A DNA stretch of 64,000 nucleotides from Candidatus Epulonipiscioides saccharophilum (GTDB lineage: Bacteria > Bacillota > Clostridia > Lachnospirales > Cellulosilyticaceae): the NCBI GenBank assembly GCA_002007295.1, contig LNZM01000156.1, positions 11,730 through 75,729 on the forward strand. Direction: 5' to 3'. The translations under genes were made by a program, and so were the position numbers. The notes below the pieces were generated by a model. It made no database searches. It was not told the DNA's origin and saw only the letters and a program-made list of their open reading frames with translations. How positions within the stretch are numbered: the first letter of the stretch is position 1; the number at the start of each line of letters is the position of its first letter. Positions 20,924 to 37,499 of this stretch are shown piece after piece.

Positions 20924-22375
20924 TTATTTTGCATTTAATTTATCTAGTTCGGATTGCCATAGAGGTTCTTGATTTTCTACAGATTCATTTGGTGTCATGT
21001 GACCCCATCCTATCTGGTCTACAACTAAATTCTTTTTAATATTTCCTGCAATAGATGCTGAATGATCTACTTGACCTATCCCTGGCGTTCTCAAAAGAAC
21101 CATAGTTTCGTCTACAGCACGAGAGTCTCTGTATAACGGATAAAGTGCTGTCATCCATGCTTCTTCATAATCGTATTCTGGAGCTTCGTTAGTCCAAATG
21201 TCCAATGCAAACGCTATATCCTCCGCTTCTTCTTTCGAATAACTGGCTGGAATAATATAAGCGTCGTCTGTATATATGGCCATGTATTGATCTGCTTGTG
21301 GCCCTTTTGGAAATGCTACCATTCCCCAATCATCAGTCATCTGATCTACTCCTAAAGTAGTACATTCCCATTCACTACCTAAGTACATAGCTATTTTTCC
21401 GCTATAAAATAATTGTTTATGTCCGTCCCAGTGTTCAGGAATTAGATCTAAATCAGTTTTCCAAAAATTAGATGCCCATTCAAGTGCTTCCATGCTTTCC
21501 GGGGATTTTAAATCATAAAAATAATTTCCGTTCTCATCTATATCCATGAATGTCCCACCATTTGAAAATACAGCTGCACTACCAAAATTTCCATAATGAC
21601 TGTTTATAGCATAAATATCGTTTACTCCATCGTTATCTGTGTCTTTCGTTAATAGCTCAGATAACTCTATAAATTTATCCCATGTCCACTCGCCAGATGC
21701 TTGTAAGTCATATAATAAATCCGGATCTAAACCTGCTTCTTCAAATAATCGCTTATTGAAAAATATTACACGCCCTGGTCGGCCAAATTTAGTTACTCCG
21801 TAAACGCTATCTCCAACCGTCATCGTATCGATTAATGAACTGCTCCACTTTGAATCTTCTAGGTCAATAGAATCTAATGTCGCAAGATCATATAATAGAC
21901 CACTATCTCTAGCTGCTAAAATGAAGTTAGCATGGATCCTAAAAACTTGCGCCGCTGGATCGTCTGCTAAACTAGAAGTGGATAACAATTCTAATAAAGT
22001 GCTATAAGTTCCTAAAGCTTTTTGTGCGTATGTAAAATTATGTGTATCCATCATTTCGTTACGATATTCCCATAGAGCCTCTTCTTGAGAACTTCTTTTA
22101 ACTTCTGGCTCTACCGTATCGCTCCATTCAGCCTGAATTATTTCTAATCCACCAAGATCACGGACAGGCTCCGGTTCTGGTTCTGGAACCGGTTGAGAGG
22201 TTTCTACATCCTTTTGAGCGATTTCCGTATTATTATCGGATTGAGTAGTTTCTTGTTGTTCTACATTTTCTATTTTTGTGTCTTCGACCTCGGCCGTTTC
22301 TCCACCGCAAGCTGTCAAAATACTCATGACCATTGCTGTTAAAACCAAATATTTAAATTTTTTATTCATAAACAA
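20924..22375 (-). CDS. Extracellular solute-binding lipoprotein (sugar ABC type)
   Basis: Lipobox LTAC, acidic/PE linker, IFFNKRLFEEAG, WTWDKF, WGMVAFPKGP. Confidence 0.9.
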   Translation of the reverse strand: MFMNKKFKYLVLTAMVMSILTACGGETAEVEDTKIENVEQQETTQSDNNTEIAQKDVETSQPVPEPEPEPVRDLGGLEIIQAEWSDTVEPEVKRSSQEEALWEYRNEMMDTHNFTYAQKALGTYSTLLELLSTSSLADDPAAQVFRIHANFILAARDSGLLYDLATLDSIDLEDSKWSSSLIDTMTVGDSVYGVTKFGRPGRVIFFNKRLFEEAGLDPDLLYDLQASGEWTWDKFIELSELLTKDTDNDGVNDIYAINSHYGNFGSAAVFSNGGTFMDIDENGNYFYDLKSPESMEALEWASNFWKTDLDLIPEHWDGHKQLFYSGKIAMYLGSEWECTTLGVDQMTDDWGMVAFPKGPQADQYMAIYTDDAYIIPASYSKEEAEDIAFALDIWTNEAPEYDYEEAWMTALYPLYRDSRAVDETMVLLRTPGIGQVDHSASIAGNIKKNLVVDQIGWGHMTPNESVENQEPLWQSELDKLNAK

Positions 22376-22646
22376 AATACCTCCATTAATTAATTTCTAT
22401 ATAAATTATCCTTACTTCAATCGTATTATATAATGATTAAAATATAAAGTCAATTTATATTTTTTTATTCTAAAATTATCTATATATTAAGAGTACGAGA
22501 TAATTTAAACCTTATAAGATTCAAATTATATGCTATATTTAAACCTATATGCATTGTTTATACGTCGAAATATCCCAAGTTTATAATGCATTTTTCTAAA
22601 AAATTTAAATAAGTTGATAATTTTTTTATATTTAATAACATGTCTA

Positions 22647-22675
22647 TTGAATCATTTTTCATTATGTTGTATAAT
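22647..22675 (+). promoter_or_regulatory. SigA-type promoter for the sulfatase
   Basis: TTGAAT-17 nt-TATAAT. Confidence 0.6.
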
Positions 22676-22719
22676 CATGAATAACGTAATTAAGAATAAT
22701 TTAAGGAAGGATATTGTCC

Positions 22720-24123
22720 ATGAAACAGCAAAATTATATTTTAATAATGTGTGATGATTTAGGCTACGGAGATGTTGGTTTTAATGGAAACGAAATTATA
22801 CATACGCCATATTTAGATAGGCTATCAAAAGAAGGTGCAGTATTTGAACATTTTTATTCCGGAGCACCGGTGTGTTCACCAACGAGAGGAACCTGCTTAA
22901 CCGGCCGACATCATTATCGATTCACAGTAACAACAGCCAACGCTGGATCATTACCAAAAGAAGAAATTACAATACCACAAATGTTAAAACAGCAAGGATA
23001 TACTACAGGTCATTTTGGCAAATGGCATCTAGGTACTTTATCTAAAACAATTTCGGATGGCAGACGAGGTGGCTCAAAAAATGCTACATTGTATAGTCCA
23101 CCATGGGAGCATTATATAGACGAATGTTTTTCTACAGAAGTTGCGGTTCCTTTGTACAATCCCATGGAAAATCAACATTTTACTAGTAAATATTGGTTAA
23201 GTGAAGAAAATTATGAAACCAAAAATTTAGAAGGAGATGATTCGAAAGTAATTATGGATCGTGCTATACCTTTTATAGAAAAAAATGTAGCAAATAACAA
23301 TCCCTTTTTGGCAATAATTTGGTTTCATGCACCACATGAGCCGGTTATTGCTTCGCCAGAACACCGTTCGTTATATTCGGATTATCCCGAAGTTATGCAA
23401 CATTATTTTGGATGTATCACAGCTATGGATGAACAAGTCGGAAGATTAAATTCTAAAATCAAAGCCCTTGGAATAGAAGAAAATACTTGTATATGGTTTT
23501 GTAGCGATAATGGCCCAGAAGGTGAAGGTATATCTAAAAATGGACGAGGTGCAGGTAGCACAAAAGGCCTTAGAGGACGTAAGAGAAGTCTTTTCAATGG
23601 TGGCATAAACGTTCCGGCCTGTATAAAGTGGCCAGCGTATGTTGAGCCTGGTTCTACATATTCTTTTTTGGCGAGTACTCTAGATTTTCTTCCAACTTTT
23701 TTTGCTCACAATGAAATTATAATGCCCGATAATAGACCAATAGATGGAGAAAATTTGTTGGAACATTTTCAAGGCATAACGTCCAAGCGTTTAAAACCTA
23801 TCCCATTAAGATTTGTCGGTCCGAGCAAATCACACATGGCTGGTGCACCAACATTTGGATTAATAAATGATGATTACAAAATTTTATGTAATTTCAATGA
23901 CGATCATCCTGAATCAATGATGTTTAATACTTTTACGGATAGATTAGAAGAATTCAACATAGCCGAAACTAAGCGAGATGTATTTGAAAAATATAGAGAT
24001 AATTTATGGGAAATTGCTCAAAGTTTTGAGAAAAGTCATAACGGTGCAGACTACAATATCTCGGATTATAAACCAAAATTTGATTTCATATCTAACAATT
24101 CTATATGGAACAAAATCAATTAA
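22720..24123 (+). CDS. Formylglycine-dependent sulfatase (S1)
   Basis: DDLGYGD, CSPTRG (CxPxR), LTGRH, GKWHLG, SDNG; start ATG 22720. Confidence 0.93.
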   Translation: MKQQNYILIMCDDLGYGDVGFNGNEIIHTPYLDRLSKEGAVFEHFYSGAPVCSPTRGTCLTGRHHYRFTVTTANAGSLPKEEITIPQMLKQQGYTTGHFGKWHLGTLSKTISDGRRGGSKNATLYSPPWEHYIDECFSTEVAVPLYNPMENQHFTSKYWLSEENYETKNLEGDDSKVIMDRAIPFIEKNVANNNPFLAIIWFHAPHEPVIASPEHRSLYSDYPEVMQHYFGCITAMDEQVGRLNSKIKALGIEENTCIWFCSDNGPEGEGISKNGRGAGSTKGLRGRKRSLFNGGINVPACIKWPAYVEPGSTYSFLASTLDFLPTFFAHNEIIMPDNRPIDGENLLEHFQGITSKRLKPIPLRFVGPSKSHMAGAPTFGLINDDYKILCNFNDDHPESMMFNTFTDRLEEFNIAETKRDVFEKYRDNLWEIAQSFEKSHNGADYNISDYKPKFDFISNNSIWNKIN

Positions 24124-24256
24124 AACCTCCTTTCTTGTAGGAAGCTTTTCTATATTAACTCAACTAACTTTTAGGAGGTTACGGAACAAAATCAACTAAG
24201 ACCTCCTTTTTTTAGGAGGCTTTTCTATTCAACTCAATTAAACTTTAGGAGGTTAC
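24107..24256 (+). repeat. 76-bp-period tandem duplication of the sulfatase stop, terminator and downstream RBS
   Basis: 24107-24182 versus 24183-24256; each copy has a CCTCC/T..AGGA(A/G)G hairpin and AGGAGG. Confidence 0.93.
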
Positions 24257-24260
24257 TTTT

Positions 24261-25211
24261 ATGTTAGCAAATTTTATACTTAGCCTAAATACTGTTATGC
24301 CCTTATTCATTCTTATAGCAATCGGTTATATATTACAAAGGATGCATAAACTGGATGAAAAATTTGTGAAGCAATCCAATTACATAGTTTTTAAATTAAG
24401 TTTGCCAGTAACACTTTTTAACACCATTTACAATATCAATACCCAAGAATTATTTAATCCATGGCTAATCTCGTACGCTGTTATTTCGATGATAGTTGTT
24501 GCTACTTCACTTTTTATATTTGTTCCGAAATTTATTCATGAACCTAAAACTGCGGCTTCATTCGCCCAAAGTAGTTTTAGAGGCAATTTTGTCCTATTAG
24601 GCAGTGTATTAGCTATTCAACTTTTCGGACCAGAAGGTTCTCTACCTACCATTTCATTAATTCCTATTGTTATCCCTGTCATTATGATTCTAAGTATAAT
24701 TGTTTTACGTGTTTTGAGCCAAAATCCGGAGTTAGAACCGATAAATATTAAGCAGATTATATTTGAGATTATAAGCAATCCAATTATATTGGGAATTTTT
24801 ATCGCTATAATTTTCAAAACAATTAATATTAAAATTCCCCTTATGCTTTCTATCAGCATGGATTATTTGGGTAGTTTATCTACGCCATTAGCATTGATTG
24901 CGTTAGGAGTTCAGTTACAATTTACTCATATAGCTAAATTTAAATTAGTTGCTATATGCTCCATGATAAAATTAATAGCAATTCCTTTAATTGTGCTAAT
25001 TCCTGCTTACTATCTTGGATTCAGAAACTACGAAATGGGCGCATTATTTATTCTCTTTAGCGCACCAGCCGGCATCTCGAATTACGCTTTAGCCTATAAC
25101 ATGAAATGCGATTATGAATTTACTGGCCAAATGGTTATAATTTCCACTATGTTGTCTTTGTTCACCATGATTATCGCAATTATGATATTTAAAAACCTCG
25201 AAATTTTTTAA
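24261..25211 (+). CDS. AEC family transporter
   Basis: RGNFVLLG, NPIILGI, PLALIALG, APAG; multi-TM. Confidence 0.9.
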   Translation: MLANFILSLNTVMPLFILIAIGYILQRMHKLDEKFVKQSNYIVFKLSLPVTLFNTIYNINTQELFNPWLISYAVISMIVVATSLFIFVPKFIHEPKTAASFAQSSFRGNFVLLGSVLAIQLFGPEGSLPTISLIPIVIPVIMILSIIVLRVLSQNPELEPINIKQIIFEIISNPIILGIFIAIIFKTINIKIPLMLSISMDYLGSLSTPLALIALGVQLQFTHIAKFKLVAICSMIKLIAIPLIVLIPAYYLGFRNYEMGALFILFSAPAGISNYALAYNMKCDYEFTGQMVIISTMLSLFTMIIAIMIFKNLEIF

Positions 25212-25398
25212 AATTTAAAATTCTCTCCCTATAATTGGAAATATATTTTAAAAATATGCATATAAGTAGCGATTTATTGAAATAATATAGAATACTTTCA
25301 AAAATAGGGAGTAAATTTAAAATTTAATATGGCACTACCTATCCTTTAAAATTATCAGCTTTTAACTGTTAGGCATAAAGAAATTTAGTGGAGGTTTA

Positions 25399-27114
25399 TT
25401 GTTTATGGAAATAATAATTAGTTTTTTAATGGATTTACAAGATTGGATGTTTATTACATGTATTGGCCTATTGTTTGTTGTTGCTCAAATATTGATAATC
25501 CGGCGCTATAGAAATAGCGCATTAATGCTCGGTAATTTAGCTAGCTATATAGGTATTATCGGAACTTTTGTAGGAGTATTTCAGGGTTTACAATATTTTA
25601 ATCCAATGACTGAAAATATCGCTAAGAGTTTACCCGGATTATTATCAGGTATGAAAACAGCCTTTTTAACTTCTATAGTTGGTATGATAGCTAATTTAAT
25701 CATTAAATTAATTTGCGGATTTATAAATGGTAGAAATGAGTTAAAAGCCACCATTAATCATGAAGAAGATAATTATAAATTGATGGATTTATTTGAAAAA
25801 ATGGAAAGGCATTTGGATAGACAACTAGACTTCTCTAGTGCAAATCTAAAAAATACAAACCACATGCAAGAATTAATGGAGGAGTTGCTTAAAGAACATC
25901 AAAATATAAAAGATAATATCGACCAAATATCATTAAAACCTATAACTAAAGCTATTCATGATGTAGGTGTAAATACTACTACGGCTATATCCCTTGTATT
26001 TGACGACTTTATAAAAAAACTAATGATGGACATTAACTCACATTATGACTTTGTCCAGAATGAATTAACAATATTAAATAGTAGGGTGGATCAGGTTACT
26101 GCTCATTATCCTAATGAGGCGATATCCGAATCAGTTGCGACTTTAAATGATACATTGCAAGGGTTTGTTCAAAACATATCTCAAATCAATTTAGAGTATA
26201 ACCATCCACCCCAAATTTATATAGACGATGAAAAATTAAAGTTACTCAATGATGTATTAGAAAAATTAGACTTTTCTTTTGAAAATATAAAAGGCTTAGA
26301 TGAAATGCTAGTTCGTAATAGTGATTTAATCAAAGATCTTAGCTCTAATATAACTCAAGAACTAAATAAATTATCCAATTTTGACACTAATATTGACACA
26401 ACTGTTAGCGCTTTGGAAAACTTATCAATACAAGCTAAAATTTCATTAGAAAAATTTCAAGTTTATTTAGTAGAAACAACTCACAATGTCAATCAAACCG
26501 TTTCAAATCAATCTGAATTATTGGTTTCGAACTTTTCAAATGTATTATCATCTACCAATACTTTGTCTAAAGATCTAGAAAATCAATTTTCAGATCTAGC
26601 AGAAAATAACATAAACATTATCTCAAAATCATTAGAACATATAAAAATTCATACTCTAGATATTACTTCTGAATTAGTTAGGGAAGGTATCCTAACTACC
26701 CAAACTCTTAAAGAAGCACTAGTTGAACATCAAAAACATATGGTTAATGAATTAGGTGAGGCAGTGGACGACTGGAGTGAAGAAATTTTCGAAACATTTA
26801 GTCTTCAAACAAAGCAATTAAATACGCATAACTCTAATGTAAAGCGAGTTATAGAATCTTCTAATTTAGTATTTTCTAATGTTTTAGGTCGAATGGATAT
26901 GGAACTAAAAAATTCTGTAGAAAATCTTATGATTAATCTCAATACTAGTATAAAAAATATGATTATACCAACTATCAATAAATATAACAAAAATAAAAAT
27001 TATACTGATCCTTTTAATTATCCAAGTTCAGACGAACTAACTAATTATTCTATAATGACTGAAGAGCAAACAGATTATAGGTTAGATCAAAAAAGTAAAA
27101 GTGAAAATAATTAA
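25399..27114 (+). CDS. ZorA-like MotA/TolQ/ExbB proton-channel protein with a long helical tail
   Basis: Three N-terminal TM helices with IGIIGTFVGV..GL and LLSGMKTAFLTSIVG; ~450-aa helical tail. Confidence 0.8.
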   Translation: MFMEIIISFLMDLQDWMFITCIGLLFVVAQILIIRRYRNSALMLGNLASYIGIIGTFVGVFQGLQYFNPMTENIAKSLPGLLSGMKTAFLTSIVGMIANLIIKLICGFINGRNELKATINHEEDNYKLMDLFEKMERHLDRQLDFSSANLKNTNHMQELMEELLKEHQNIKDNIDQISLKPITKAIHDVGVNTTTAISLVFDDFIKKLMMDINSHYDFVQNELTILNSRVDQVTAHYPNEAISESVATLNDTLQGFVQNISQINLEYNHPPQIYIDDEKLKLLNDVLEKLDFSFENIKGLDEMLVRNSDLIKDLSSNITQELNKLSNFDTNIDTTVSALENLSIQAKISLEKFQVYLVETTHNVNQTVSNQSELLVSNFSNVLSSTNTLSKDLENQFSDLAENNINIISKSLEHIKIHTLDITSELVREGILTTQTLKEALVEHQKHMVNELGEAVDDWSEEIFETFSLQTKQLNTHNSNVKRVIESSNLVFSNVLGRMDMELKNSVENLMINLNTSIKNMIIPTINKYNKNKNYTDPFNYPSSDELTNYSIMTEEQTDYRLDQKSKSENN

Positions 27115-27127
27115 TTAGGAGGAGATT

Positions 27128-27835
27128 ATGAATATTTTAAATTCAACTAAAAATACAATAAATGATCCTACATCTATCGACTCAGCTATTTACGATTTAA
27201 TGGCTGGTCTAATGATAGTTTTTGTTTTAATTTCGATAGGGTTTATGGTACAAGTTCAAGAAGAAACACAAAAAGTACAAGAAATAAATAATCAATACCA
27301 AGAGCAATCCGAACTAATCAATTCATACGATATAGTAAAATCGGATATAAACGACGATCTAATCAATGCTTTTGGTGATGATTTAGATTTATTAAATATG
27401 GAAATCACGCCGGAAAATACTATAAGATTCAATTCACCAGAAGTATTATTTAGTAATGGTCAATCCGAAATAAGTGATGATTTTAAATTTATTTTGGACA
27501 AGTTTTTTCCTATATATCTAGATTTAATTTACAGCAATTATAAGGATTCTATAAAAGAGATAAGAATAGAAGGTCATACATCTACAGAATGGTCACAGGA
27601 TGTTAGCCCCAATGTAGCATACTTTAATAATATGCGCTTATCTCAAGATCGGACTAGATCAGTTCTTGAATATGTAATGAATTTACCATCCTCTGAGCCT
27701 TATAGAGATTGGTTAGTTGCAAACATGACAGCTAACGGACTTTCATCTAGTCATCCTATCATAAATCCGCTTACAGGAAAAGAAGACAGCGCCAGATCTC
27801 GTCGTGTTGAATTTAAAATTGTCACTCTTATGTAA
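27128..27835 (+). CDS. ZorB-like MotB/OmpA family protein
   Basis: TM helix with Asp (IYDLMAGLM), VLFSNGQS, IEGHTSTEW, AYFNNMRLSQDRTRSV, SRRVEFKI. Confidence 0.88.
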   Translation: MNILNSTKNTINDPTSIDSAIYDLMAGLMIVFVLISIGFMVQVQEETQKVQEINNQYQEQSELINSYDIVKSDINDDLINAFGDDLDLLNMEITPENTIRFNSPEVLFSNGQSEISDDFKFILDKFFPIYLDLIYSNYKDSIKEIRIEGHTSTEWSQDVSPNVAYFNNMRLSQDRTRSVLEYVMNLPSSEPYRDWLVANMTANGLSSSHPIINPLTGKEDSARSRRVEFKIVTLM

Positions 27836-27848
27836 AAATTTAATTAAG

Positions 27849-27872
27849 TGGAGGGGTAACCCTCCATTTTTT
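27849..27872. terminator. Terminator between zorB-like gene and the convergent ADH
   Basis: TGGAGGG-GTAA-CCCTCCA followed by TTTTTT. Confidence 0.85.
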
Positions 27873-28968
27873 ATAATATACTTTTAACATATATATCAAA
27901 TATCATATTCAAATCCACTTCTTCTGGATGATTAGCCAATTTAAGTTTATTCGCAAAAGTTATCTCTACATATTTTTGCAACTGTTCTTTAGAACATTTC
28001 ACTTTATATTCTTCTAACAATGGCTCTATTATATCACCTAGTTGATCAATACTAGATACGCCTAAATATTTTAATATTTGTTTTACTCGTTCTTGATTTT
28101 CTGGTTTTTTAAAAGACTTTAAATAAGCACGGTATAATATAGCGTTGGAAGCGCCATGTGGCATATTTTCATAATACGTTAAGCTATATCCGCATGTATG
28201 GGGCAAAGATGTTCCGGTTTGAGCTATTGCTATTCCGCCATAAGTGGATGCTAACAATAATTTTTCACGTACGTCTTTACATATATCAGCATTTGTTAAT
28301 GCTTCTAGACATTTAGATAATAGTTCTAGCCCCGTTTTAACGTACATCTCACTAATAATATTGGATTTGGTATTTAAATAACTTTCTACTAAGTGGCTTA
28401 ACGCATCTAAGGCCGTATACCTAGTAATTCCAAGAGGCATGTCCATCATATATTTTACATCTAAAAATGCTATTTCCGGAAAGACTTTATGTCCATAATT
28501 AATTTTAGTACCTCGTTTATGATCCGTAAAAATAGCATACTGAGTTACTTCGCTTCCTGTGCCCGCTGTTGTTGGAATCGCTATCACTGGTATAGCATCT
28601 AATTTTGGGCCACCTATTAAATGCTGAGCATCTATTTCTGGATGCTTTATCATAATTGCAATCCCTTTTGCTGCATCCAATGGCGATCCTCCACCAATTC
28701 CTATTACAAAATCTATATCTATAGCCATCTTTTTGGCCTTTTCTAATGTTTCCAAAGAGGGATTTTCTTCTACTTCATCGAATAATTCATGTTTTATCCC
28801 TTCTTTATCTAACGCACTTGTTATATCCTTATAGGCCCCATTTTTTTTTGCCGAAGATTTTCCTGTTACAATTAAAGCCTTATTACCTTTTTTTAGCAAA
28901 GTGCTGTTTTTATTTATACATTCGTCTCCTGAAATGATTGTCGTTGGCATTTCAAATATAAATTCCAT
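27871..28968 (-). CDS. Iron-containing alcohol dehydrogenase family protein
   Basis: GIGGGSPLDAAKG, IPTTAGTGSE, DALSHLVESY, PHG; true start ATG 28968 (MEFIFEMPT) behind GGAGG. Confidence 0.93.
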   Translation of the reverse strand: MEFIFEMPTTIISGDECINKNSTLLKKGNKALIVTGKSSAKKNGAYKDITSALDKEGIKHELFDEVEENPSLETLEKAKKMAIDIDFVIGIGGGSPLDAAKGIAIMIKHPEIDAQHLIGGPKLDAIPVIAIPTTAGTGSEVTQYAIFTDHKRGTKINYGHKVFPEIAFLDVKYMMDMPLGITRYTALDALSHLVESYLNTKSNIISEMYVKTGLELLSKCLEALTNADICKDVREKLLLASTYGGIAIAQTGTSLPHTCGYSLTYYENMPHGASNAILYRAYLKSFKKPENQERVKQILKYLGVSSIDQLGDIIEPLLEEYKVKCSKEQLQKYVEITFANKLKLANHPEEVDLNMIFDIYVKSIL

Positions 28969-29097
28969 TCTATGGTTTTCCTCCAATACTTGTAGTTGGC
29001 ATTTCAAATATAAATTTCATTTTATGGATTTCCTCTAATAATTGTAGTTGACCTTTCAAATATAAATTTTATTTTATGGGTTTCCTACAATAATTTA
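28943..29097 (-). repeat. Three 52-bp tandem copies of the ADH RBS/start region
   Basis: Units start at 28943, 28995 and 29047 and decay outward. Confidence 0.92.
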
Positions 29098-29172
29098 TAT
29101 AATAATATGCCAATTATAAATCAAACTTATCTAATTATTCTAGCCTATTTAAAAATTTTTTTCAAAAAGTAC

Positions 29173-29201
29173 TTGACAGTTTTGCAATTATAGGATAAGC
29201 T
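29173..29201 (+). promoter_or_regulatory. SigA promoter for tRNA-Arg(CCU)
   Basis: TTGACA-17 nt-TAAGCT. Confidence 0.75.
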
Positions 29202-29213
29202 TTACAGACAAAT

Positions 29214-29286
29214 GCATCTGTAGCTCAGAGGATAGAGCGTCGGTTTCCTAAACCGTGCGTCGGATGTTCGAATCATCTCAGGTGCA
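29214..29286 (+). tRNA. tRNA-Arg(CCU), CCA not encoded
   Basis: Cloverleaf GCATCTG/CAGGTGC, anticodon loop TTCCTAA, TTCGAAT T-loop. Confidence 0.95.
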
Positions 29287-29291
29287 TTATT

Positions 29292-32204
29292 TTATTCTTC
29301 GGATTCTTTTATTACGTCCAAAATTTTATTCATATCCGTTACATATGCTAACCCATTAAACCTCGGCCCATTTTCAAAAGAAAAAATACTTCTCGCTGCT
29401 ACCCCATCATCTCCTAATAACCTACTATAAGGATTGATTTTTATTGTCGTTTTTTTAGACTGCTTTTCATATTTCGCATAATGGTGTAACATTAAAGCAG
29501 TTACTAAACTATCCTTTAATGCTCCATTCTCTACTAATCCCTTCAAAATTATATTGTTAATATCTTCATTTTTATAAATATTAGTAATGGTTGAGTATGA
29601 CATTACTTTTCTATATATTTTCCCTTTTTCAGATCGGCCTCCTACTATTTGCCCCGAATATATATTAAAAACTCCAGATAATTTTTTATTTTCGTTTTTG
29701 ATGTGTTGATCTATTTCTTGTGTATCCTTCATATGAAGAGCTGTTTCCAAAAAACCACTGCTATGATCAATAACTCTAAACTGTTCAAAATAAAGTGGAT
29801 ACATTCTTAAGTCGCTGTGAAGTTTAAAAACCTTCTCTAAAACATCTTCGTTCATAAAAAACATATTTTCAACTTTTTTTGTTAAGTTAACTTTACTTGT
29901 AAATGGTTTCTGTGCTATATAAATAATATCTTTATATCCTAAATCATACAGTTCATCAATAGTTTTTGTTACAATATCAGGTTTATAAAATACGTCTGTT
30001 CCGTCATAATAATCTTGAAAAGTTTTAAAAGTATCGTAAATTATACAATTATCGCTTATTTTTGTTAATAATACTACTTCTCCTAAAAGTACTTTGGTTC
30101 CACGTTCTCTATCCGCAAAGCTACTATCTGTTTGTCTACTAGTTACTATAATAATAGCTGTCTGATCCAATATACTTGTAGTATCAAATATAAAATTCTT
30201 TGGAACATTAGCATACATAGATGACAAAGCGTTGTTATAAACAAAGTCTCCACTATTATCAATATTAAAACCTTGTGAGGCTGCGTGATATTCGTTATTT
30301 AATCCATGCTCAAATATTTTTACTACATTTCTTACATGACTCCCTACTTCTTCTGGAAAAATATTACGATGTATTCTCATTAAATTGATGTATATGAGCT
30401 TGTTCCGTTCTGTCTTAGGTAAGCATTTACATAATATTGTATTCAATAAGGTTAAATAAGATATTTGGTAAATTCGATCATTTACCATTTTAGGATTAAT
30501 TGTATAAGGAATTTTAATATTAAAATAACCTTGTAAATTTTTTTCAATTATCGTTAAACTATTTCTATCTTCATAATTTGTTTGGCTAGGATAAAAAATT
30601 ATCGGTAATATATTTAAGCTTAGCTTATTATAATCGATTGTTAGTTGATCAATATCCGAAGTTTCATACATAGCTTTACTTTTGATATTAATTTTAATTG
30701 GTAATTTTAATAATATCTGTGCTACATTTTCATTTATGGTTAATTGATCTAAATTTTTTTCATGTATAACACTTATATTTTGCAAATACTCTGTAAAATG
30801 CTTTACTGGTCGTAAAAAACTATGTGAATCTAGATTTGGAGCCAGAACATTTTTAAATAAAAATAATTCTCGATCAAAATCTTTGTCTTGAATCGCCATA
30901 TCTGTTAATCTATATCGAACTACACTTAAAAATATATTTTCAATTGACTGAATATTTCTATCACCGGATCCAGTGCCATTAGCATTAAAATAATGGTCAA
31001 AGACTTTTATTATTTGATCAAATCTCTTTAATTCCAGTAATCTTTTAAGTCCTAAATCGTCATCTCTTTCCCAAGTTAAAACCGGGTCATAATTGGGATT
31101 TTCTAATTCAAATAGTAAAAATGAAAATAAAAATATCTTTCTAATTGCTTTGTCAAATTTCGACTCACGTAAATCTTCTTCTAAACTATCCAAATGATAT
31201 CTGTAAGATGCCTTTTGATCTTCGGCTTGTACATTACCATTAAGTTTCATACTCAAGACTCTTTTAAAAGTTTGCGTTTTGTCTGTTTTGTCTTTTGATA
31301 AAATACCATCAACTTTTCCGATAAAAGGCATCATATCAAAAATATTACTTTGGGAAAATATATTGCTTATATTTTTTTCAAATGTTCCGATAACAATTGT
31401 TTTATCTTGTTCTCTTTTAAACGAAAGTTTAGCTAAATATTGTTCTACAAGACTAAATCTGGTTATATAACATTTAGTTAAAATATAGTCTCTAGAGTTT
31501 TTATTTTTATAGTTTAATAACAAATAATACATATACATAATAGAAATAGATCTACTAATACAGGCTAAAGACTTATTTTCTAACATATCTATTAGCCCTT
31601 CTAATCCACCCTGTAAGTTTAAAGCTTTGGTTATTTGAATATCTTGATCATCTTCATCTAGTTCTTCCTTAATAAGCTCGATTACACTATCTACTAAAAA
31701 TTTAGCGTCATTTTCTGTATTAATCTCAATTTCTACATAATCCATTCTTAAGCGTTCCATTTGGTTAGGTTGATTTGGGTTAAAAGAAATACGCCTTTTA
31801 TTAACAGTATGACTATTAAAGTTATAATCCATGCCGAAATTTATTTTTTCGTTAGGTCTTGACTTTAAAGAATAAATGTCAGTCAGCAAATTCGAGTCTA
31901 TTTCTGGACAATTAAGTTTTTCGCTTATCATTTTTATATACTCTGCAAAAGTAGCATAATCTTTATGTTCTAACGTCGCAAAATCGGGTGCTTTATACAT
32001 ATCAATCTCCAAAGTGTTAAGAGCAGAAGATCGTTTAAAGTGATTAGCAATACTTTCACAAATATCGGAAAGATTAGATATTTTTAAATTTGTGCTTGTT
32101 TGTTTAATTTGGAGCTTATCTATGGCTGAGTTTAAAAGTTTAGTTAAAACAGGTATGTAGTTTACCTTGGATAAGAAATCCATATTATCTCGTAATATAT
32201 TCAT
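29292..32204 (-). CDS. 970-aa uncharacterised protein; C-terminal half resembles an inactive MID-PIWI module
   Basis: Long uninterrupted ORF with an AGGA-containing RBS; fold call is inferred from motif order only. Confidence 0.85.
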   Translation of the reverse strand: MNILRDNMDFLSKVNYIPVLTKLLNSAIDKLQIKQTSTNLKISNLSDICESIANHFKRSSALNTLEIDMYKAPDFATLEHKDYATFAEYIKMISEKLNCPEIDSNLLTDIYSLKSRPNEKINFGMDYNFNSHTVNKRRISFNPNQPNQMERLRMDYVEIEINTENDAKFLVDSVIELIKEELDEDDQDIQITKALNLQGGLEGLIDMLENKSLACISRSISIMYMYYLLLNYKNKNSRDYILTKCYITRFSLVEQYLAKLSFKREQDKTIVIGTFEKNISNIFSQSNIFDMMPFIGKVDGILSKDKTDKTQTFKRVLSMKLNGNVQAEDQKASYRYHLDSLEEDLRESKFDKAIRKIFLFSFLLFELENPNYDPVLTWERDDDLGLKRLLELKRFDQIIKVFDHYFNANGTGSGDRNIQSIENIFLSVVRYRLTDMAIQDKDFDRELFLFKNVLAPNLDSHSFLRPVKHFTEYLQNISVIHEKNLDQLTINENVAQILLKLPIKINIKSKAMYETSDIDQLTIDYNKLSLNILPIIFYPSQTNYEDRNSLTIIEKNLQGYFNIKIPYTINPKMVNDRIYQISYLTLLNTILCKCLPKTERNKLIYINLMRIHRNIFPEEVGSHVRNVVKIFEHGLNNEYHAASQGFNIDNSGDFVYNNALSSMYANVPKNFIFDTTSILDQTAIIIVTSRQTDSSFADRERGTKVLLGEVVLLTKISDNCIIYDTFKTFQDYYDGTDVFYKPDIVTKTIDELYDLGYKDIIYIAQKPFTSKVNLTKKVENMFFMNEDVLEKVFKLHSDLRMYPLYFEQFRVIDHSSGFLETALHMKDTQEIDQHIKNENKKLSGVFNIYSGQIVGGRSEKGKIYRKVMSYSTITNIYKNEDINNIILKGLVENGALKDSLVTALMLHHYAKYEKQSKKTTIKINPYSRLLGDDGVAARSIFSFENGPRFNGLAYVTDMNKILDVIKESEE

Positions 32205-32473
32205 AGTTCAGTTTAATCCTCTTTTAGTTTTTCAGTATTAATTATACAACGAGGATATAGATTGTTATATCCTCGTTTAAAATTTTAATTGTGTAAAATT
32301 CTTTAGATATTGGTGTTACGCCTCTGTCAGCGATGTCGAAGCGTAATCAAATACATTATTGACACAAAATTAGAATTTTAATCATTTCTCGAAAAATTTT
32401 TTTTATTGCTTCTGCTGAAAGCTTTCTGGTTCATCCATTAGGTAGCATTAAGATATCATAATTTTATGCTATT

Positions 32474-32548
32474 TTATCTTCTAAGGATTTTCTCCATTGA
32501 CTTTCCTTTAGCAAGTTCATCAACAAGTTTATCTAAATATCGCATTTC
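32474..32548 (-). pseudogene. DUF2200-like C-terminal fragment
   Basis: EMRYLDKLVDELAKGKSMEKILRR* with no intact upstream frame. Confidence 0.7.
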
Positions 32549-32700
32549 TTTTTACAACAAATTTCACTTCTTTATTGCTTCTGTATAAATATTTCCGGCC
32601 CTTTTCTTTATTCCAACAATTTAGTATTTTATAACATTTTTCATTTTAATATGTTATAATGGACAAGCAAAGTACGAATTATAAATTATATAGGCATACG

Positions 32701-32819
32701 TATAAAATGAAAAATTCTATCGCCTACGAAAAATCACGTTATAAATTTAGACGTAAATAAAAATTATAAAATGAAAAATGCTACTACATACGAAAAATCA
32801 CGTTATAAACTTAAACGTA
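32701..32819. repeat. Intergenic 64-bp-period tandem duplication
   Basis: 32701-32755 versus 32765-32819, ungapped, shared TACGAAAAATCACGTTATAAA. Confidence 0.85.
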
Positions 32820-33034
32820 CGAAAAGTAATAAAGTTATAATATAAAAAATCCAATTTGACTCAACCTATTTTATCTCTATAGAATGAATCATCAGTTTTT
32901 AAGAATTTGGATATAATTTCAAAACAAATTTCATTTTTTTATTGGAACTAGATTAGACCTTGATATTTTGTTGTCTTTTAATTAAAATATTTTATGCAAC
33001 TAGAAGTGTTTTTTAGTCTGAAATAAAAATACAA

Positions 33035-33877
33035 TTGAGGAAAGAAGTTGATAAATTGTTAAAAAAAACGCTTAAAAAAGTCAAAGAGGTTTGTCCATTA
33101 ATTCACAACATTACAAACTATGTAACAGTTAATGATTGCGCAAATATTTTACTAGCTTGCGGTGCCTCACCTATCATGGCTGATGACATAGCAGAAGTGG
33201 AAGAAATTACTAGCATTTGCGGAGGTTTAACTATTAACATTGGAACATTAAATGAAAGAACTATAGAGTCCATGATATTAGCTGGCCGAAAAAGCAATTT
33301 ACTAAATCATTCTGTAGTCTTAGATCCGGTTGGAGTAGGAGCATCTAAATTTCGAACAAACACGGTAGAAAAATTATTGAAAGAAATTCAATTTACAGCA
33401 ATCCATGGAAATGTTTCTGAATTAAAGGCTTTAGCCATTGGATCTTCTAGTACCACCGGCGTGGATGCAAATATTAATGATAAAATCACCCAATCCAACA
33501 TTCAAGAAGTAGTACAACTGGCAAAAAATTTTTCTAAAGAATCCCAAGCTATCATTATTGTTACAGGAGCAATCGACATTGTATGCGATGCTAATCAAGC
33601 ATATATTATTAAAAACGGTCATCCAATGATGAGTAAAGTTTCCGGAACAGGTTGCATGTTATCAACCATGATCACAGCCTATTTAACAGCAAATCCAGAT
33701 GACAAACTTTTAGCAAGCGCAACCGCTGTTATCTTAATGGGATTGGCTGGCGAATTAGCCTTTAATAGATTATCAGAATATGAAGGAAACCTGACTTATA
33801 GGGATTTAATAATAGATGAAATCTACAATATGGATGGTAATATTTTAGAGCAAAAAGCTAAATATAAAATATGCTAA
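33035..33877 (+). CDS. thiM: Hydroxyethylthiazole kinase
   Basis: PLIHNITNYVTVNDCAN, VLDPVGVG, GTGCMLS; start may be TTG 33056. Confidence 0.95.
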   Translation: MRKEVDKLLKKTLKKVKEVCPLIHNITNYVTVNDCANILLACGASPIMADDIAEVEEITSICGGLTINIGTLNERTIESMILAGRKSNLLNHSVVLDPVGVGASKFRTNTVEKLLKEIQFTAIHGNVSELKALAIGSSSTTGVDANINDKITQSNIQEVVQLAKNFSKESQAIIIVTGAIDIVCDANQAYIIKNGHPMMSKVSGTGCMLSTMITAYLTANPDDKLLASATAVILMGLAGELAFNRLSEYEGNLTYRDLIIDEIYNMDGNILEQKAKYKIC

Positions 33878-34268
33878 GAATATAAAATAAATCTGACTTC
33901 CTAGAGACTTAATAATAGATTACATTTACAATATGGATGGTAATATTTTGGAGCAAAGAGCTAAATATGAAATATGCTAAGAATATAAAATAAATCTGAT
34001 TTCCTAGAGATTTAATAATAGATGAAATTTACAATATGGATGATAATATTTTGGAGCAAAAAGCTAAATATGAACTATGCTAAAAATATAAAATGAATCT
34101 GACTTCCTAGAGACTCCATAATAGATGACATTTATAATATGAATGGTACTATTTTGGAGTAAAGAGCTAAATATGAAATGTGCTAATAATATAAAAATAA
34201 TAGATGAAATTTAAAATATAAATGGTACTGTTTTGAAGAAAGGAGCTAAATATGAAATGTGCTAATAA
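33791..34268 (+). repeat. About five tandem ~103-bp copies of the thiM 3' end / thiE start junction
   Basis: Units at 33791, 33893, 33996, 34099 and a partial unit at about 34196. Confidence 0.95.
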
Positions 34269-35679
34269 AATGATGAGATTATACGCCGTTACCGATAGAG
34301 CTTGGGCATCATCCGAAAATCCCTTAATTAGACAAGTAGAACAAGCGTTAGAAGGCGGGATCACATGTTTACAGCTACGAGAAAAAAATTATTCTAATCT
34401 TGACAAAAAGGATATCATTATCATACAAGATTTATGTTCCAAATATAATGTACCATTTATAATAAACGACAGTTTATCCATTATGCTAGAATACCAAGCA
34501 GCCGGTATCCACATTGGACAAAACGATTTACCCGCATCAGAAGTTCGTAGCATAATAGGCTCTAACAAAATTTTAGGAGTAACTGTTCATTCCGTAGACC
34601 AGGCCAAAAAAGCCGAAGAAGATGGTGCCGACTATCTTGGGGTTGGCGCAATCTTTTCGACTACTACAAAATCAGACGTTAATTTAATTCCAGAAGAAGT
34701 CATCCAGCAAATAACTTCTATCGTAAACATTCCGGTCGTCGCTATAGGTGGTATCACTCTCGAAAATATTTATAAATTGAAACCTCTAAATATAGATGGT
34801 GTCGCCATTGTCTCAGCTATATTTTCAAGCAACAACATTAAAAATACATGCCAAAAATTATTGAAAAAATCCGAAAAAATTGCCAGAAAACCAACGGTAC
34901 TAACCATAGCTGGATCGGATTGCAGTGGTGGGGCTGGTATTCAGGCCGACCTTAAAACATTCGCAGCAAATAAGGTTTACGGAATGAGTATTATTACCGC
35001 CTTAACAGCGCAAAACACAACTGGCGTTTACGGAATATTTGATATAACACCCGAGTTTATAGGCCAACAATTCGATAGCGTTTTTACAGATATTTACCCC
35101 AATGCTATAAAAATCGGCATGGTCTCAAACGTTGAAACTATAAATATGATAGTCTCTAAAATTAATCAATATAAACCCAAAAATTTAGTCATAGACCCTG
35201 TTATGGTTTCCACTAGTGGCCATAAATTATTATCCGATGGAGCTGAAACAGAATTAATAGAAAAACTTTTACCATGTGCTACTGTGATAACACCAAATAT
35301 TCCAGAAAGTGAAATATTGTGGAATAAATCTATCAATACAAAAGACGACATGATGGAGGCTGCCGAATATATCGCCAACAAAATCGGTACAGCTGTCCTA
35401 GTTAAAGGCGGTCACCTAATAAATGATGCCATGGATTTCCTTTTTTCAAACGGCATCGGTACTTGGTACACATCCGAAAAAATAAATACTGAAAATACTC
35501 ATGGTACCGGATGTACTCTCTCATCAGCCATCGCTGCTAACCTAGCTAAAGGTTATAGCTTAGAAAAAAGTATAACTCGTGCTAAATTATACTTGGTCGG
35601 CGCTTTAAAAGCTGATTTAAATCTTGGCCGAGGTAGTGGCCCTCTCGATCATGTTTATAATGTTAACGAAATTAAATAA
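34252..35679 (+). CDS. thiDE: Bifunctional ThiE-ThiD (thiamine-phosphate synthase / HMP-P kinase) fusion
   Basis: N-half LYAVTDR, LQLREK, IHIGQND, VAIGGI; C-half AGSDCSGGAGIQAD, DPVMVSTSG, THGTGCTLS. Confidence 0.93.
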   Translation: MKCANKMMRLYAVTDRAWASSENPLIRQVEQALEGGITCLQLREKNYSNLDKKDIIIIQDLCSKYNVPFIINDSLSIMLEYQAAGIHIGQNDLPASEVRSIIGSNKILGVTVHSVDQAKKAEEDGADYLGVGAIFSTTTKSDVNLIPEEVIQQITSIVNIPVVAIGGITLENIYKLKPLNIDGVAIVSAIFSSNNIKNTCQKLLKKSEKIARKPTVLTIAGSDCSGGAGIQADLKTFAANKVYGMSIITALTAQNTTGVYGIFDITPEFIGQQFDSVFTDIYPNAIKIGMVSNVETINMIVSKINQYKPKNLVIDPVMVSTSGHKLLSDGAETELIEKLLPCATVITPNIPESEILWNKSINTKDDMMEAAEYIANKIGTAVLVKGGHLINDAMDFLFSNGIGTWYTSEKINTENTHGTGCTLSSAIAANLAKGYSLEKSITRAKLYLVGALKADLNLGRGSGPLDHVYNVNEIK

Positions 35680-35719
35680 TGTATGAGGCTATCGCTCCGT
35701 AGATTCCATCACAGTAGAA

Positions 35720-35845
35720 ATAATATCTAAGTTGTTGACCTGATCCCCGCCGTGGCTCTCCGCCCAGCCTCTCCTTCTAGGAGAGGTATCAGATTTAGCT
35801 GACTGAGGGGTTCTTATGGAGTTGTCGCCCCGTAATTATCTTTTG
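35720..35845. repeat. REP-like palindromic element
   Basis: CCTCTCCTTCTAGGAGAGG hairpin; 35797-35834 matches 57791-57828 in reverse orientation with 1 mismatch in 38 nt. Confidence 0.8.
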
Positions 35846-35993
35846 TCGCAGCCTATATTCAATTTGTCATAATGATCGAGACTAATAAATTGTGTTCAAT
35901 TCATAATACATATGGTGGAATCAATTGCCTGGTATGCGATTTCTAAATTCGCAGTATAATATAAGTTATAATCCAATTAAGGAGGATTCTCTT

Positions 35994-37445
35994 ATGGAAC
36001 TGAAAATATTTGAATATACAACTAAAGCTTTAGAAAAGTTAGACGATTTGAAAATTGATTTAGAAATTGCTAGCAAAGAACTTGAACATTACTTTGCAAA
36101 CATTGTAAAAAATGAATGCACAGGTTATATAAATATCAGCTCCCGAGTTAAGTCTAGTGACAGTTTAAAGGAAAAAATCTTACGACATGATTTTTACAAT
36201 AAATATAGAACTATAGCTATTCTTTACGAAAATTTAGCAGATTTGATTGGTATTAGACTTGAATGTCGCTTTATCGAAGACGAGAAAGAAATTTACAGAT
36301 TATTAAAACGCTTTTTTATAAATGAACATGAAAGTTCTAACGGATATTTTTACAAACCCGGTCACAATGGCATTATTTTAGAATTAAAAAGTGTTCAGCC
36401 AAAAGATCAAAAAAACGGTTTAAAAATGTATAGAATAGATGGTAAATATTTATACAACGACCAAATCATTAATTTTGAAGTTCAAATTAAATCACTTGTT
36501 AATATTTTTTGGAGCGAGATTGAACATAACGTTATTTATAAAAACTATAACTATATGATAGCAGACAAATTCTACAAGGATATTTTATATTCTATTAAAA
36601 ACAGTCTTACAACTATTGATGGACAACTGTTACTAATATCTAATCATTTTAATCAGGGTAAGACTTTTAATCAAGATACTCGCCAAAACCAGTTAGAGCA
36701 GCTACTTTCCAAATCCATCTATGATTTATTTGCTGAACGCATGAAAAATGATATTGGATTGATTGTTGACTTTAGAAAATCCTGTGATACACTTGTAAAA
36801 TATGTTTTACGAGACATCAACATGAAAGCAGAAGAAACTTATAGGAATATATTGATGCAAGTCCTAAATCGACTAAGTGTAATAGATAATAACGAAATAA
36901 CATTTAATACAGAAATTCTTTTTGAGAGAAAAATAAATTTTCAGAAAGATAAATTCAAAATGCTCATCGGATCTCATATACAGAAAGTTCTTAATGAAGA
37001 ATTTCAGTGGAATCTTTTTTTCCGAATTTTATTTTATATAGAGCCTAGTGATAATGCGGGAGATTTCGAAAATTTCATTGAATATTATAAAATGAGATTA
37101 TATGATGAACTTTTTGTCCATTTTGATGCTCATTACATCGTAGAGGAATTACTTATTTCGTTTGCGCATACATTTATTCAGATTAACTCTATCCGGTTAC
37201 TATATGATGACACTATTGAAAAGATTAAAAATATTCTATGGAAAACTATTTCGGAAATCCAGGCTCAAAAAATAGATTCTCGCCAGCAATGGGATGGACA
37301 AAAATCCATTTTACTCAAACTTTTATCCTACAGAATATTGGATCTTTTTAATGTAGATATTCCGGCAGCCGACATTCTTAAATTTATGTATGAGTTAGAA
37401 ACTATAAAAATGAATTTACCGAAAAGTCTAATCAAATATATCTAA
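35994..37445 (+). CDS. RelA/SpoT-like nucleotidyltransferase domain protein with a long C-terminal region
   Basis: SRVKSSDSLKEK, DLIGIR, FEVQIKS..FWSEIEH; start ATG 35994 behind AAGGAGG. Confidence 0.8.
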   Translation: MELKIFEYTTKALEKLDDLKIDLEIASKELEHYFANIVKNECTGYINISSRVKSSDSLKEKILRHDFYNKYRTIAILYENLADLIGIRLECRFIEDEKEIYRLLKRFFINEHESSNGYFYKPGHNGIILELKSVQPKDQKNGLKMYRIDGKYLYNDQIINFEVQIKSLVNIFWSEIEHNVIYKNYNYMIADKFYKDILYSIKNSLTTIDGQLLLISNHFNQGKTFNQDTRQNQLEQLLSKSIYDLFAERMKNDIGLIVDFRKSCDTLVKYVLRDINMKAEETYRNILMQVLNRLSVIDNNEITFNTEILFERKINFQKDKFKMLIGSHIQKVLNEEFQWNLFFRILFYIEPSDNAGDFENFIEYYKMRLYDELFVHFDAHYIVEELLISFAHTFIQINSIRLLYDDTIEKIKNILWKTISEIQAQKIDSRQQWDGQKSILLKLLSYRILDLFNVDIPAADILKFMYELETIKMNLPKSLIKYI

Positions 37446-37499
37446 AAAAAATAGAGGGATAACATTTTATCTCTCTAATCGTTTTTTATTTAAGACTGC

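Follow-up and report, generated by a model that had tools for sequence, protein, structure and literature searches.

A ZorE-less ZorA-ZorB pair related to type II Zorya in the Epulopiscium group

In Zorya systems, the membrane complex formed by ZorA and ZorB is viewed as a sensor and transmitter only, useless without its nuclease partners, and the systems themselves are under-represented in single-membrane bacteria; both structural studies of the complex concur on these points (PMC11890865, PMC11946911). In type II Zorya the partner is ZorE, which nicks host DNA as well as phage DNA, and the ZorAB II pair of E. coli alone gives no protection against T7 or phAvM (PMC11890865). Here we describe a zorA-zorB pair that stands without ZorE in a 64,000-nucleotide stretch of Candidatus Epulonipiscioides saccharophilum DNA (contig LNZM01000156.1, positions 11,730 to 75,729, of assembly GCA_002007295.1). 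This whole stretch is referred to below as the window. Both genes are intact, transcribed together and subject to purifying selection. We found no paper on ZorE-less ZorAB lineages in monoderms, nor any on Zorya in Epulopiscium. The components are known; what is new is a ZorAB pair under selection that stands alone and has a remodelled tail, and this contradicts the current view of the motor as useless alone.

Both proteins find their closest relatives in Candidatus Epulonipiscium viviparus, Ca. Epulonipiscioides gigas and further Epulopiscium metagenome-assembled genomes (MAGs) of the Lachnospiraceae (Bacillota), in agreement with the Firmicute origin that an earlier, sequence-only reading of the locus had assigned. 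We favor, with moderate confidence, the view that the pair is a working ZorA-ZorB module derived from type II Zorya, whose ZorE nickase was lost before the sampled Epulopiscium lineages split. The lineage offers a natural experiment in which the motor is selected and transcribed in the gut while its only known output is gone, with comparison points in the same tree: Clostridium species with an intact ZorE and Romboutsia with a decaying one. Targets of the ZorA tail besides ZorC, ZorD and ZorE, wall sensing by ZorB in monoderms and the rarity of Zorya in these bacteria all become testable.

Relationship of the pair to type II Zorya

The ZorB protein matches the PADLOC ZorB2 model PDLC00641, its best match, over its full length (2.1e-75; best ZorB1 model, 1e-48). 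Among NCBIfam families, ZorB2 is the best by far with 203 bits, though short of its equivalog cut-off of 400, compared to 27.8 bits for flagellar MotB PRK06667 (cut-off 300) and 22.3 bits for MotS (cut-off 264). The sole sequence relative in the PDB is chain A of 8VVI (2.4e-35), the type II ZorAB complex of Sulfuricurvum kujiense. The sequence-only reading had described the protein as MotB/OmpA-like, which is borne out by a Pfam OmpA match above cut-off (28.1 versus 27.2 bits), and had judged the pair closer to ZorAB than to flagellar MotAB. The profile models agree: rather than favoring flagellar or generic stators, they place the pair with type II Zorya.

Functional residues were mapped onto an Escherichia ZorB2 that matches in length the protein mutated by Mariano et al., in which D24, H141, S143 and R215 are essential by experiment (PMC11890865). 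D23 of the window protein, the counterpart of D24, is unchanged in all 14 ZorBs of the alignment, while H150, S152 and R225 align with the peptidoglycan-binding H141, S143 and R215. The OmpA-type N-x2-L-S-x2-R motif (N168, L171, S172, R175) is present and invariant. The strings put forward at the outset as a ZorAB signature, IEGHTSTEW (148-156) and AYFNNMRLSQDR (164-175), are both found and occupy invariant columns of the ZorB alignment. The last helix (about 11 residues, holding the likewise essential R230 in E. coli) is absent from the window, E. viviparus and E. gigas proteins; R230 is likewise unconserved among other ZorB2 proteins. The stalk between the Asp and the His measures 127 residues in the window, against medians of 124 in monoderm Firmicutes and 117 in the 61 other loci, a comparison that is descriptive only, the sequences being non-independent. 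Lengthened stalks occur with or without ZorE (window and surveyed loci L002, L003, L007, L009-L013 and L090) and may represent an adaptation to the monoderm envelope.

ZorA is placed less firmly than ZorB. It matches six PADLOC ZorA2 models (1e-13 to 1e-20) and, more weakly, ZorA1 models. The match to the ZorA2 profile does not exceed 69 bits and is made chiefly through the N-terminal ~230 residues; the NCBIfam ZorA2 model gives 50 bits (cut-off 700). Residues 43-113 match Pfam MotA_ExbB (24.1 bits, cut-off 22.9), residues 22-109 match chain F of 8VVI, a type II ZorA (1e-7), and the matching proteins from E. coli plasmids are annotated as zorA2. G50, G53, T54, A86, F87, T89, S90 and G93 are invariant across aligned relatives, a set that includes Thr/Ser positions that would face the ZorB Asp. 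An AlphaFold2 (AF2) model of low to moderate confidence built from eight sequences (mean predicted local distance difference test score, pLDDT, 54.6; membrane core 71-77; residues 440-510 63-74) has three helices within the first ~111 residues, joined by loops of 3-7 residues, and then a nearly unbroken helix from ~113 to 529, making up a cytoplasmic tail of ~460 amino acids. The MotA_ExbB match and this helix correspond to the MotA-like protein with a ~450-amino-acid helical tail that had been predicted. In a Foldseek comparison of the model with the PDB, ZorA chains ranked at the top, but their best E-value was 0.04 and no match was significant at E<=0.001.

The two parts of ZorA have diverged to different extents: identity to the E. 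viviparus protein is 62% over residues 1-120 and 26-35% over the tail. The best ZorA2 score falls from 1001 bits in E. coli-type proteins to 277 in Clostridium with ZorE, 182 in Romboutsia, 111-114 in E. viviparus and E. gigas and 69 in the window, and this fall runs parallel to the state of ZorE. A C-terminal tip of the form …ISxxFxxDYxxL… is kept from E. coli through Romboutsia and Nele67, another member of the Epulopiscium clade; in the proteins of the window, E. viviparus and E. gigas, an unstructured linker and an acidic NYSI-type tip take its place. The tail motif QFGENF…WQENYK is kept in E. viviparus, E. gigas and Nele67 and is gone from the window. At the same time, a clade-specific block, HQKxMxxELGEAVxDWSxEI…QTKQ (~445-485), is strongly conserved in the three A/B-group ZorAs and coincides with the best-modeled part of the tail. 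Because these proteins share conserved blocks of their own, we read the effector-facing end of ZorA as probably remodelled and not randomly decayed. At E<=1e-30, an exhaustive phmmer search of 1.84 billion representatives returned only the E. viviparus and E. gigas proteins and a fragment from a near-identical strain, three in all, the next match lying at 1e-15. Hence, in public data, this ZorA subfamily is limited to the Epulopiscium A/B group.

Compared with type II systems such as those of E. coli ATCC 8739 and S. kujiense, the locus retains the gene order, the ion-site Asp, the peptidoglycan-binding His/Ser/Arg residues, the ZorA membrane core and a long helical ZorA tail, and its ZorB is 42-49% identical to diderm ZorB2. 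It differs in that it has no ZorE, in that ZorA lacks QFGENF…WQENYK and the ISxxFxxDY tip, and in that ZorB lacks the R230 helix and has a stalk ~10 residues longer. Moreover, the host is a monoderm, and the locus, rather than being island-borne, is a syntenic, core-like part of the chromosome. Similarity to type I Zorya (ZorABCD of E. coli; PDB 8QYD) extends to the 5:2 motor logic, a peptidoglycan-binding ZorB and a ZorA tail required for signaling (PMC11946911). However, the type I ZorA is larger, with extra periplasmic elaboration, the window has neither ZorC nor ZorD, and ZorA1 and ZorB1 models score far lower. Type III differs as well: no ZorF or ZorG match was found in the window, and ZorA3 and ZorB3 models score far below those of type II.

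Absence of ZorE and retention of the motor

None of the 38 window open reading frames (ORFs) of at least 120 amino acids matches the PADLOC models for ZorC, ZorD, ZorE, ZorF or ZorG. A ZorE hidden Markov model (HMM), built from 55 sequences of surveyed ZorE-positive loci and run in all six frames, identified neither a ZorE nor a remnant of one in the 64-kb window, in the E. viviparus, E. gigas and Nele67 loci or in four Romboutsia loci. The initial observation that the pair has no Zorya effector gene thus extends to its relatives in the Epulopiscium group. The underlying survey covered 80 genome loci with ZorB relatives among the matches listed, in which genes were called and of which 78 were informative; Epulopiscium-group loci were added through exact-protein look-ups and not from the ZorB genome scan. 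A gene matching the ZorE profile adjoins ZorB in 64 of the 78 informative ZorB2 loci, usually encoding 270-390 amino acids and abutting or overlapping ZorB. Spot checks with the PADLOC ZorE2 model confirmed the assignment (9e-71 in L012, 9e-177 in L018, 2e-114 in L030). Seven of ~66 diderm loci have no ZorE within 10 kb, and in ZorE-less diderm loci the position of ZorE holds only genes that look unrelated (cytochrome b561, hexapeptide transferase, methyltransferase, DUF2018). A pattern-limited scan of 185,579 species genomes with four sequences of the ZorE subclade found, among Firmicutes, two Clostridium species only, and no Epulopiscium or Romboutsia record, which is weak negative evidence. 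One surveyed alphaproteobacterial MAG (L083, from 9811) has ZorB and ZorE in a single 559-amino-acid frame, the product of either a fusion or a sequencing frameshift.

The monoderm carriers of ZorE in the survey are two Clostridium species. C. aestuarii and Clostridium sp. ZS2-4 (L012, L013) resemble the window in being monoderm Firmicutes on a sister ZorB branch with a lengthened ZorB stalk; unlike it, they encode a full ZorE of 279-281 amino acids immediately 3' of ZorB, no gap being called between the two, and the type II tail motifs are still present in their ZorA. In a neighbor-joining tree of ZorB, the Epulopiscium clade has the form (Nele67,(E. gigas,(E. viviparus, window))), with ZorE in none of its members. 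The sister group comprises ZorE-positive Fusobacteria, Lutibacter and Clostridium, together with Romboutsia, which has a stub or nothing. The window and E. viviparus have in common a locus composed, local rearrangements apart, of genes for a sulfatase, a Mem_trans transporter, ZorA, ZorB, an iron-containing alcohol dehydrogenase (Fe-ADH) and a protein of ~960 amino acids. A PfkB orthologue (65% identical) lies beside ZorA in E. gigas and 8.5 kb from ZorB in E. viviparus. From the single ZorE-less clade, the synteny with E. viviparus and the presence of PfkB near the E. gigas pair, it is most likely that ZorAB was inherited vertically and that ZorE was lost before the sampled Epulopiscium lineages diverged. 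We found no relatives carried on Firmicute phages or plasmids.

Two further observations concern these sister loci. In E. gigas (L002, 1-7149), a bacteriophage exclusion (BREX) cluster (BrxC 4e-213, PglZ 2e-90, BrxL 5e-218) ends 2.8 kb upstream of ZorA, with a nucleoside hydrolase and the PfkB kinase in between. In E. viviparus CP117982 (L009), an 85-nt, 98%-complementary inverted repeat (6983-7067/10646-10730) surrounds a 3.6-kb Mem_trans-ZorA-ZorB block, and this block is reversed in a 99%-identical strain from SRR9425185 (L001). The segment therefore inverts within E. viviparus, or among its polyploid genome copies. No such 85-nt repeat occurs in the window, where the orientation of the Mem_trans gene relative to ZorA is opposite to that in E. 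viviparus.

The Romboutsia pairs (L003, L007, L010, L011) likewise occur in a monoderm and in ordinary chromosomal context, with ZorE lost or reduced. They represent a second, independent and more recent loss, and their ZorA still has the canonical C-terminal tip. The sole stub match of the ZorE HMM is a 112-amino-acid ORF located 9 bp 3' of ZorB in some Romboutsia genomes (8745-9083 in L007, L008 and L011). It joins ZorE profile positions 1-28 to positions 181-256, an N-terminal piece and the HNH end, and thus represents a ZorE with an internal deletion, in which Tyr replaces the last His of the C-x2-C-H element. In the other Romboutsia loci ZorE is gone entirely, and in one of them (L004) ZorA is cut to 164 amino acids beside conjugation genes. 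A gene for an AAA_15/AAA_21 ATPase followed by a DUF3226 gene, which together look like a defence-type pair, lies 1.5 kb upstream of Romboutsia ZorA (L007/L008, 3185-5022).

Loss of the nuclease has not been followed by relaxation of the pair. We estimated dN/dS by the Nei-Gojobori method against a 1218-bp contig from another sample (94.5% identical in DNA), which spans ZorB and the final 148 codons of ZorA; P values give the chance of so few non-synonymous changes under neutrality. ZorB has 27 synonymous and 7 non-synonymous changes (dS 0.216, dN 0.0126, omega 0.058, P=3e-13), and the 148-residue tip of the ZorA tail has 16 and 15 (dS 0.215, dN 0.043, omega 0.20, P=5e-5). Between two E. viviparus strains, omega is 0.31 for ZorA and 0.13 for ZorB, from 9 and 3 substitutions, respectively, too few to be decisive. 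Full-length ZorA ORFs of 520-611 amino acids are found in four deeply diverged lineages, in an AT-rich genome: at the 29% G+C of the window, a 569-codon open frame has a probability of ~1e-21 of arising by chance. Homologues thus do not always carry effectors, and this copy is not under relaxed selection.

The pair is also transcribed. A 2,246-nt contig from a gut metatranscriptome, with a depth of 36, spans positions 25573-27792 and crosses the zorA-zorB junction. Depths in the same run are 0 for Mem_trans and the 970-amino-acid gene farther downstream, 6.5 for the sulfatase, 21-25 for Fe-ADH and 27 for thiM, and none of the RNA contigs runs from zorB into Fe-ADH. Contig depth gauges expression poorly, but the unevenness of the depths makes DNA carry-over unlikely. 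Full-length frames, purifying selection, conserved functional residues and transcription all accord with the original statement that both ORFs are intact.

Divergence from E. viviparus is uneven across the neighborhood. Identities are 82% for valyl-tRNA synthetase, 79% for the sulfatase, 74% for Fe-ADH, 69% for a glycoside hydrolase (GH) and for Mem_trans, 66% for ZorB, 47% for a solute-binding protein (SBP) and 43% for the 970-amino-acid protein. ZorA, at 34.5% (against ~70-80% for most neighbors), is the fastest-evolving gene of the group.

What a motor without its nuclease might do

Since the nuclease gene was lost and the motor kept, the motor must now act via something else. By analogy with the solved ZorAB complexes (PMC11946911, PMC11890865), five ZorA subunits would surround two ZorB subunits in the membrane, ZorB would be anchored to the peptidoglycan wall, and the flow of H+ or Na+ past Asp23 would turn ZorA together with its tail bundle. 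One could envision that the tail no longer recruits ZorE and that the signal of a disturbed envelope passes to another partner, not encoded nearby. Phage attack or damage to the wall is, in our view, most likely still the trigger; we lean towards the sensing of an envelope breach or a phage because ZorA evolves faster than all of its neighbors and because BrxC-PglZ-BrxL is found 2.8 kb away from the E. gigas copy.

Hu et al. proposed that ZorB makes contact with the wall only once infection has drawn it and the membrane together, and noted that Zorya is under-represented in monoderms. It is tempting to speculate that the loss of ZorE is favored where a thick wall lies close to the membrane, as ZorB would engage the wall too readily and the nicking of host DNA would become costly. 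If the motor does stand alone, the repeated loss of ZorE in monoderm Firmicutes would reflect the conflict between a DNA-nicking effector and constant contact with a thick wall. We advance only tentatively, and with less assurance than the working-module view, the broader proposal that stand-alone ZorAB has long been kept in a monoderm lineage, its remodelled tail tip docking an unlinked effector or its wall-anchored rotary sensor having been co-opted for a cellular task that does not involve nucleases, with wall incompatibility behind the disappearance of ZorE.

Several points weigh against a working module of this kind. The disappearance of QFGENF…WQENYK from the window ZorA means that its tail may be less constrained than those of E. 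viviparus and E. gigas, and the selection estimate for ZorA covers its last 148 residues. The ZorB tree carries no support values, and the five-to-two arrangement, like the rotation, is carried over by homology. The locus sits in housekeeping chromosome and not in a defence island; the rate of ZorB is close to that of housekeeping neighbors (66% identity versus 69-82% for most), and the pair is core-like in the Epulopiscium clade, both of which are unusual for defence genes. Finally, as ZorAB II is inactive in E. coli when ZorE is missing, a role in defence needs a partner, for which there is no candidate at hand.

Some of these same features would be explained if the complex had been domesticated and, as a sensor or motor anchored to the wall and driven by ions, now helped to maintain the envelope of these giant cells, which depend on the sodium motive force, with no anti-phage role. 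ZorAB is present in every sampled Epulopiscium lineage and lies in a housekeeping region syntenic between the window and E. viviparus, ZorB diverges at a genome-typical rate, the zorAB RNA depth equals or exceeds that of the neighbors with no known infection, and the nuclease effector is fully gone. However, the rapid evolution of ZorA (34.5% identity) follows a pattern commoner in conflict genes, the E. gigas copy lies beside BREX, no cellular partner or phenotype is known, and the E. viviparus genome paper makes no mention of ZorAB (PMC10756260). We regard domestication as a serious rival, though the less likely reading.

A canonical type II Zorya with ZorE, or another known effector, encoded elsewhere in the genome would reduce the finding to an unusual split operon. 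An effector is indeed to be expected from the inactivity of ZorAB alone in E. coli (PMC11890865), and the effector searches covered the 64-kb window and the loci of its relatives. However, all surveyed loci with a ZorE have it abutting or overlapping ZorB, the canonical ZorA2 tip and tail motif, which are the expected effector contacts, are gone, and the pattern-limited scan described above, weak as it is, returned no Epulopiscium ZorE. These considerations make a trans-encoded effector improbable.

Even less probable is that the 970-amino-acid neighbor is a new effector of the pair. Its gene is within 1.5 kb of ZorB, a relative is found near the pair in E. viviparus, and the protein, which has no Pfam, NCBIfam or PADLOC family and two database matches, is fast-evolving (43% identity). 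Its AF2 model, made from a single sequence, has a mean pLDDT of 32. In an Epulopiscium-group assembly (L093, 6064-12316), a relative lies 2 bp ahead of a protein exceeding 1131 amino acids that has AAA_22 and Helicase_C domains, a defence-like arrangement, and it also adjoins a 1959-amino-acid LRR/Ig-like surface protein. Against such a role, the gene is on the opposite strand, with Fe-ADH and a tRNA-Arg intervening, and has an RNA depth of 0 versus 36 for ZorAB. Around the E. gigas pair (10 kb upstream, 4 kb downstream) and the Nele67 pair (8 kb upstream; the contig ends ~400 bp past ZorB) no relative was found, and the AAA_22/Helicase_C partner is missing from the 64-kb window. The link suggested earlier between this neighbor and the pair is therefore not supported, and nothing ties the protein to ZorAB; with its helicase relative, the gene may be a defence-type gene or module in its own right. 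The tRNA-Arg lies between the start of Fe-ADH and the stop of the 970-amino-acid gene. No att-like direct repeat of it was found up to 36 kb away, and a genomic island carrying the gene was rejected on this ground.

The sequence-only reading had left three options for the pair: effectors encoded in trans, an effector-less variant, or a remnant. The effector-less variant stands as the best of these. A type II Zorya decaying after the loss of ZorE would fit the stepwise drop of the ZorA2 score from 1001 to 69 bits, the lost tail motifs and the truncated ZorA of one Romboutsia locus. This remnant interpretation is already contradicted by the dN/dS values (0.058 for ZorB, 0.20 for the ZorA tip), by full-length ORFs in at least four deeply diverged AT-rich lineages, by the retention of every tested functional residue and by transcription of the operon, and we give it very little credence.

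Finally, a generic stator has to be considered. MotA has four transmembrane helices and a large cytoplasmic torque-generating domain between the second and the third. The pair does resemble MotAB, MotPS and PomAB in a distantly homologous channel core and in a B subunit with an OmpA-like anchor, but its scores with their models are far lower, its context is non-flagellar, and ZorA has no torque-generating cytoplasmic domain and a 460-amino-acid tail instead. ExbBD and TolQR differ in that the B subunit of the window has an OmpA domain and the host is a monoderm; neither TonB nor TolA is among the 25 Pfam families most matched by the window ORFs. That Pfam gives just MotA_ExbB and OmpA, and that Epulopiscium is heavily flagellated (PMC10756260), hardly lends credibility to a flagellar or MotAB/ExbBD-type stator in the face of 203 bits for ZorB2 versus 22-28 for MotB and MotS, a ZorA with three transmembrane helices and no large inter-helix cytoplasmic loop, the lack of flagellar genes near zorAB in the window, and the single, separate flagellar stator set named in the E. 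viviparus genome paper (PMC10756260).

Layout of the locus and its surroundings

The zorA and zorB genes are co-directional and 13 bp apart (Table 1). Counted from the TTG of the ORF list, zorA would encode 571 amino acids; the true start is probably the ATG, judging from the spacing of the GGAGG element and from the 569-residue length of the database copy. Several sigma-70-like hexamer pairs occur in the intergenic segment 25212-25389; since none exceeds chance expectation, no promoter was assigned. An Rfam search of 22000-38000 gave no match other than the tRNA, and none to a leader RNA or riboswitch 5' of zorA. The gap of 35 bp between zorB and the convergent Fe-ADH gene contains nothing except the terminator, whose 10-bp stem includes 5 G-C pairs and is followed, after a loop of 4, by a T-run. 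The two-gene operon closed by a terminator was thus correctly recognized from the letters, as were its metabolic flanks, with the sulfatase and the Mem_trans transporter upstream and Fe-ADH downstream. Taken as a whole, the window is ordinary housekeeping chromosome, with genes for valyl-tRNA synthetase, thiamine functions, Csp-type subtilases and pentose-phosphate enzymes.

Table 1. Features of the zorAB locus and its vicinity (window coordinates)
Feature	Position	Strand	Remarks
Ribosome-binding site of zorA, GGAGG	25390..25394	+	10 nt before ATG 25405, 4 nt before TTG 25399
zorA-like gene	25405..27114	+	569 aa; start in ORF list is TTG 25399
zorB-like gene	27128..27835	+	235 aa; transmembrane helix with Asp23, helical stalk, OmpA-like peptidoglycan-binding domain
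Intrinsic-terminator-like hairpin	27846..27869	.	common to the convergent zorB and Fe-ADH genes
tRNA-Arg	29213..29287	+	anticodon CCT
Gene for 970-aa protein	29292..32204	-	
Tandem repeat	33799..34271		period 103 nt, ~5 copies
Gene for RelA_SpoT-domain protein	35925..37445	+	506 aa

Two features farther downstream deserve mention. The tandem repeat is situated just upstream of a thiE/thiD fusion ORF, and each of its copies repeats the 3' end of a thiM-like ORF (ending in …IIDEIYNMDGNILEQKAKYKIC and the stop) together with a spacer. A joint in an RNA contig that goes back 382 nt (33887>33506) is as expected of a repeat. The 506-amino-acid protein combines an N-terminal RelA_SpoT alarmone-synthetase domain (3e-14) with a C-terminal region of ~300 amino acids that has no family, and gives no PADLOC match; its predicted layout recalls that of fused small-alarmone-synthetase toxins.

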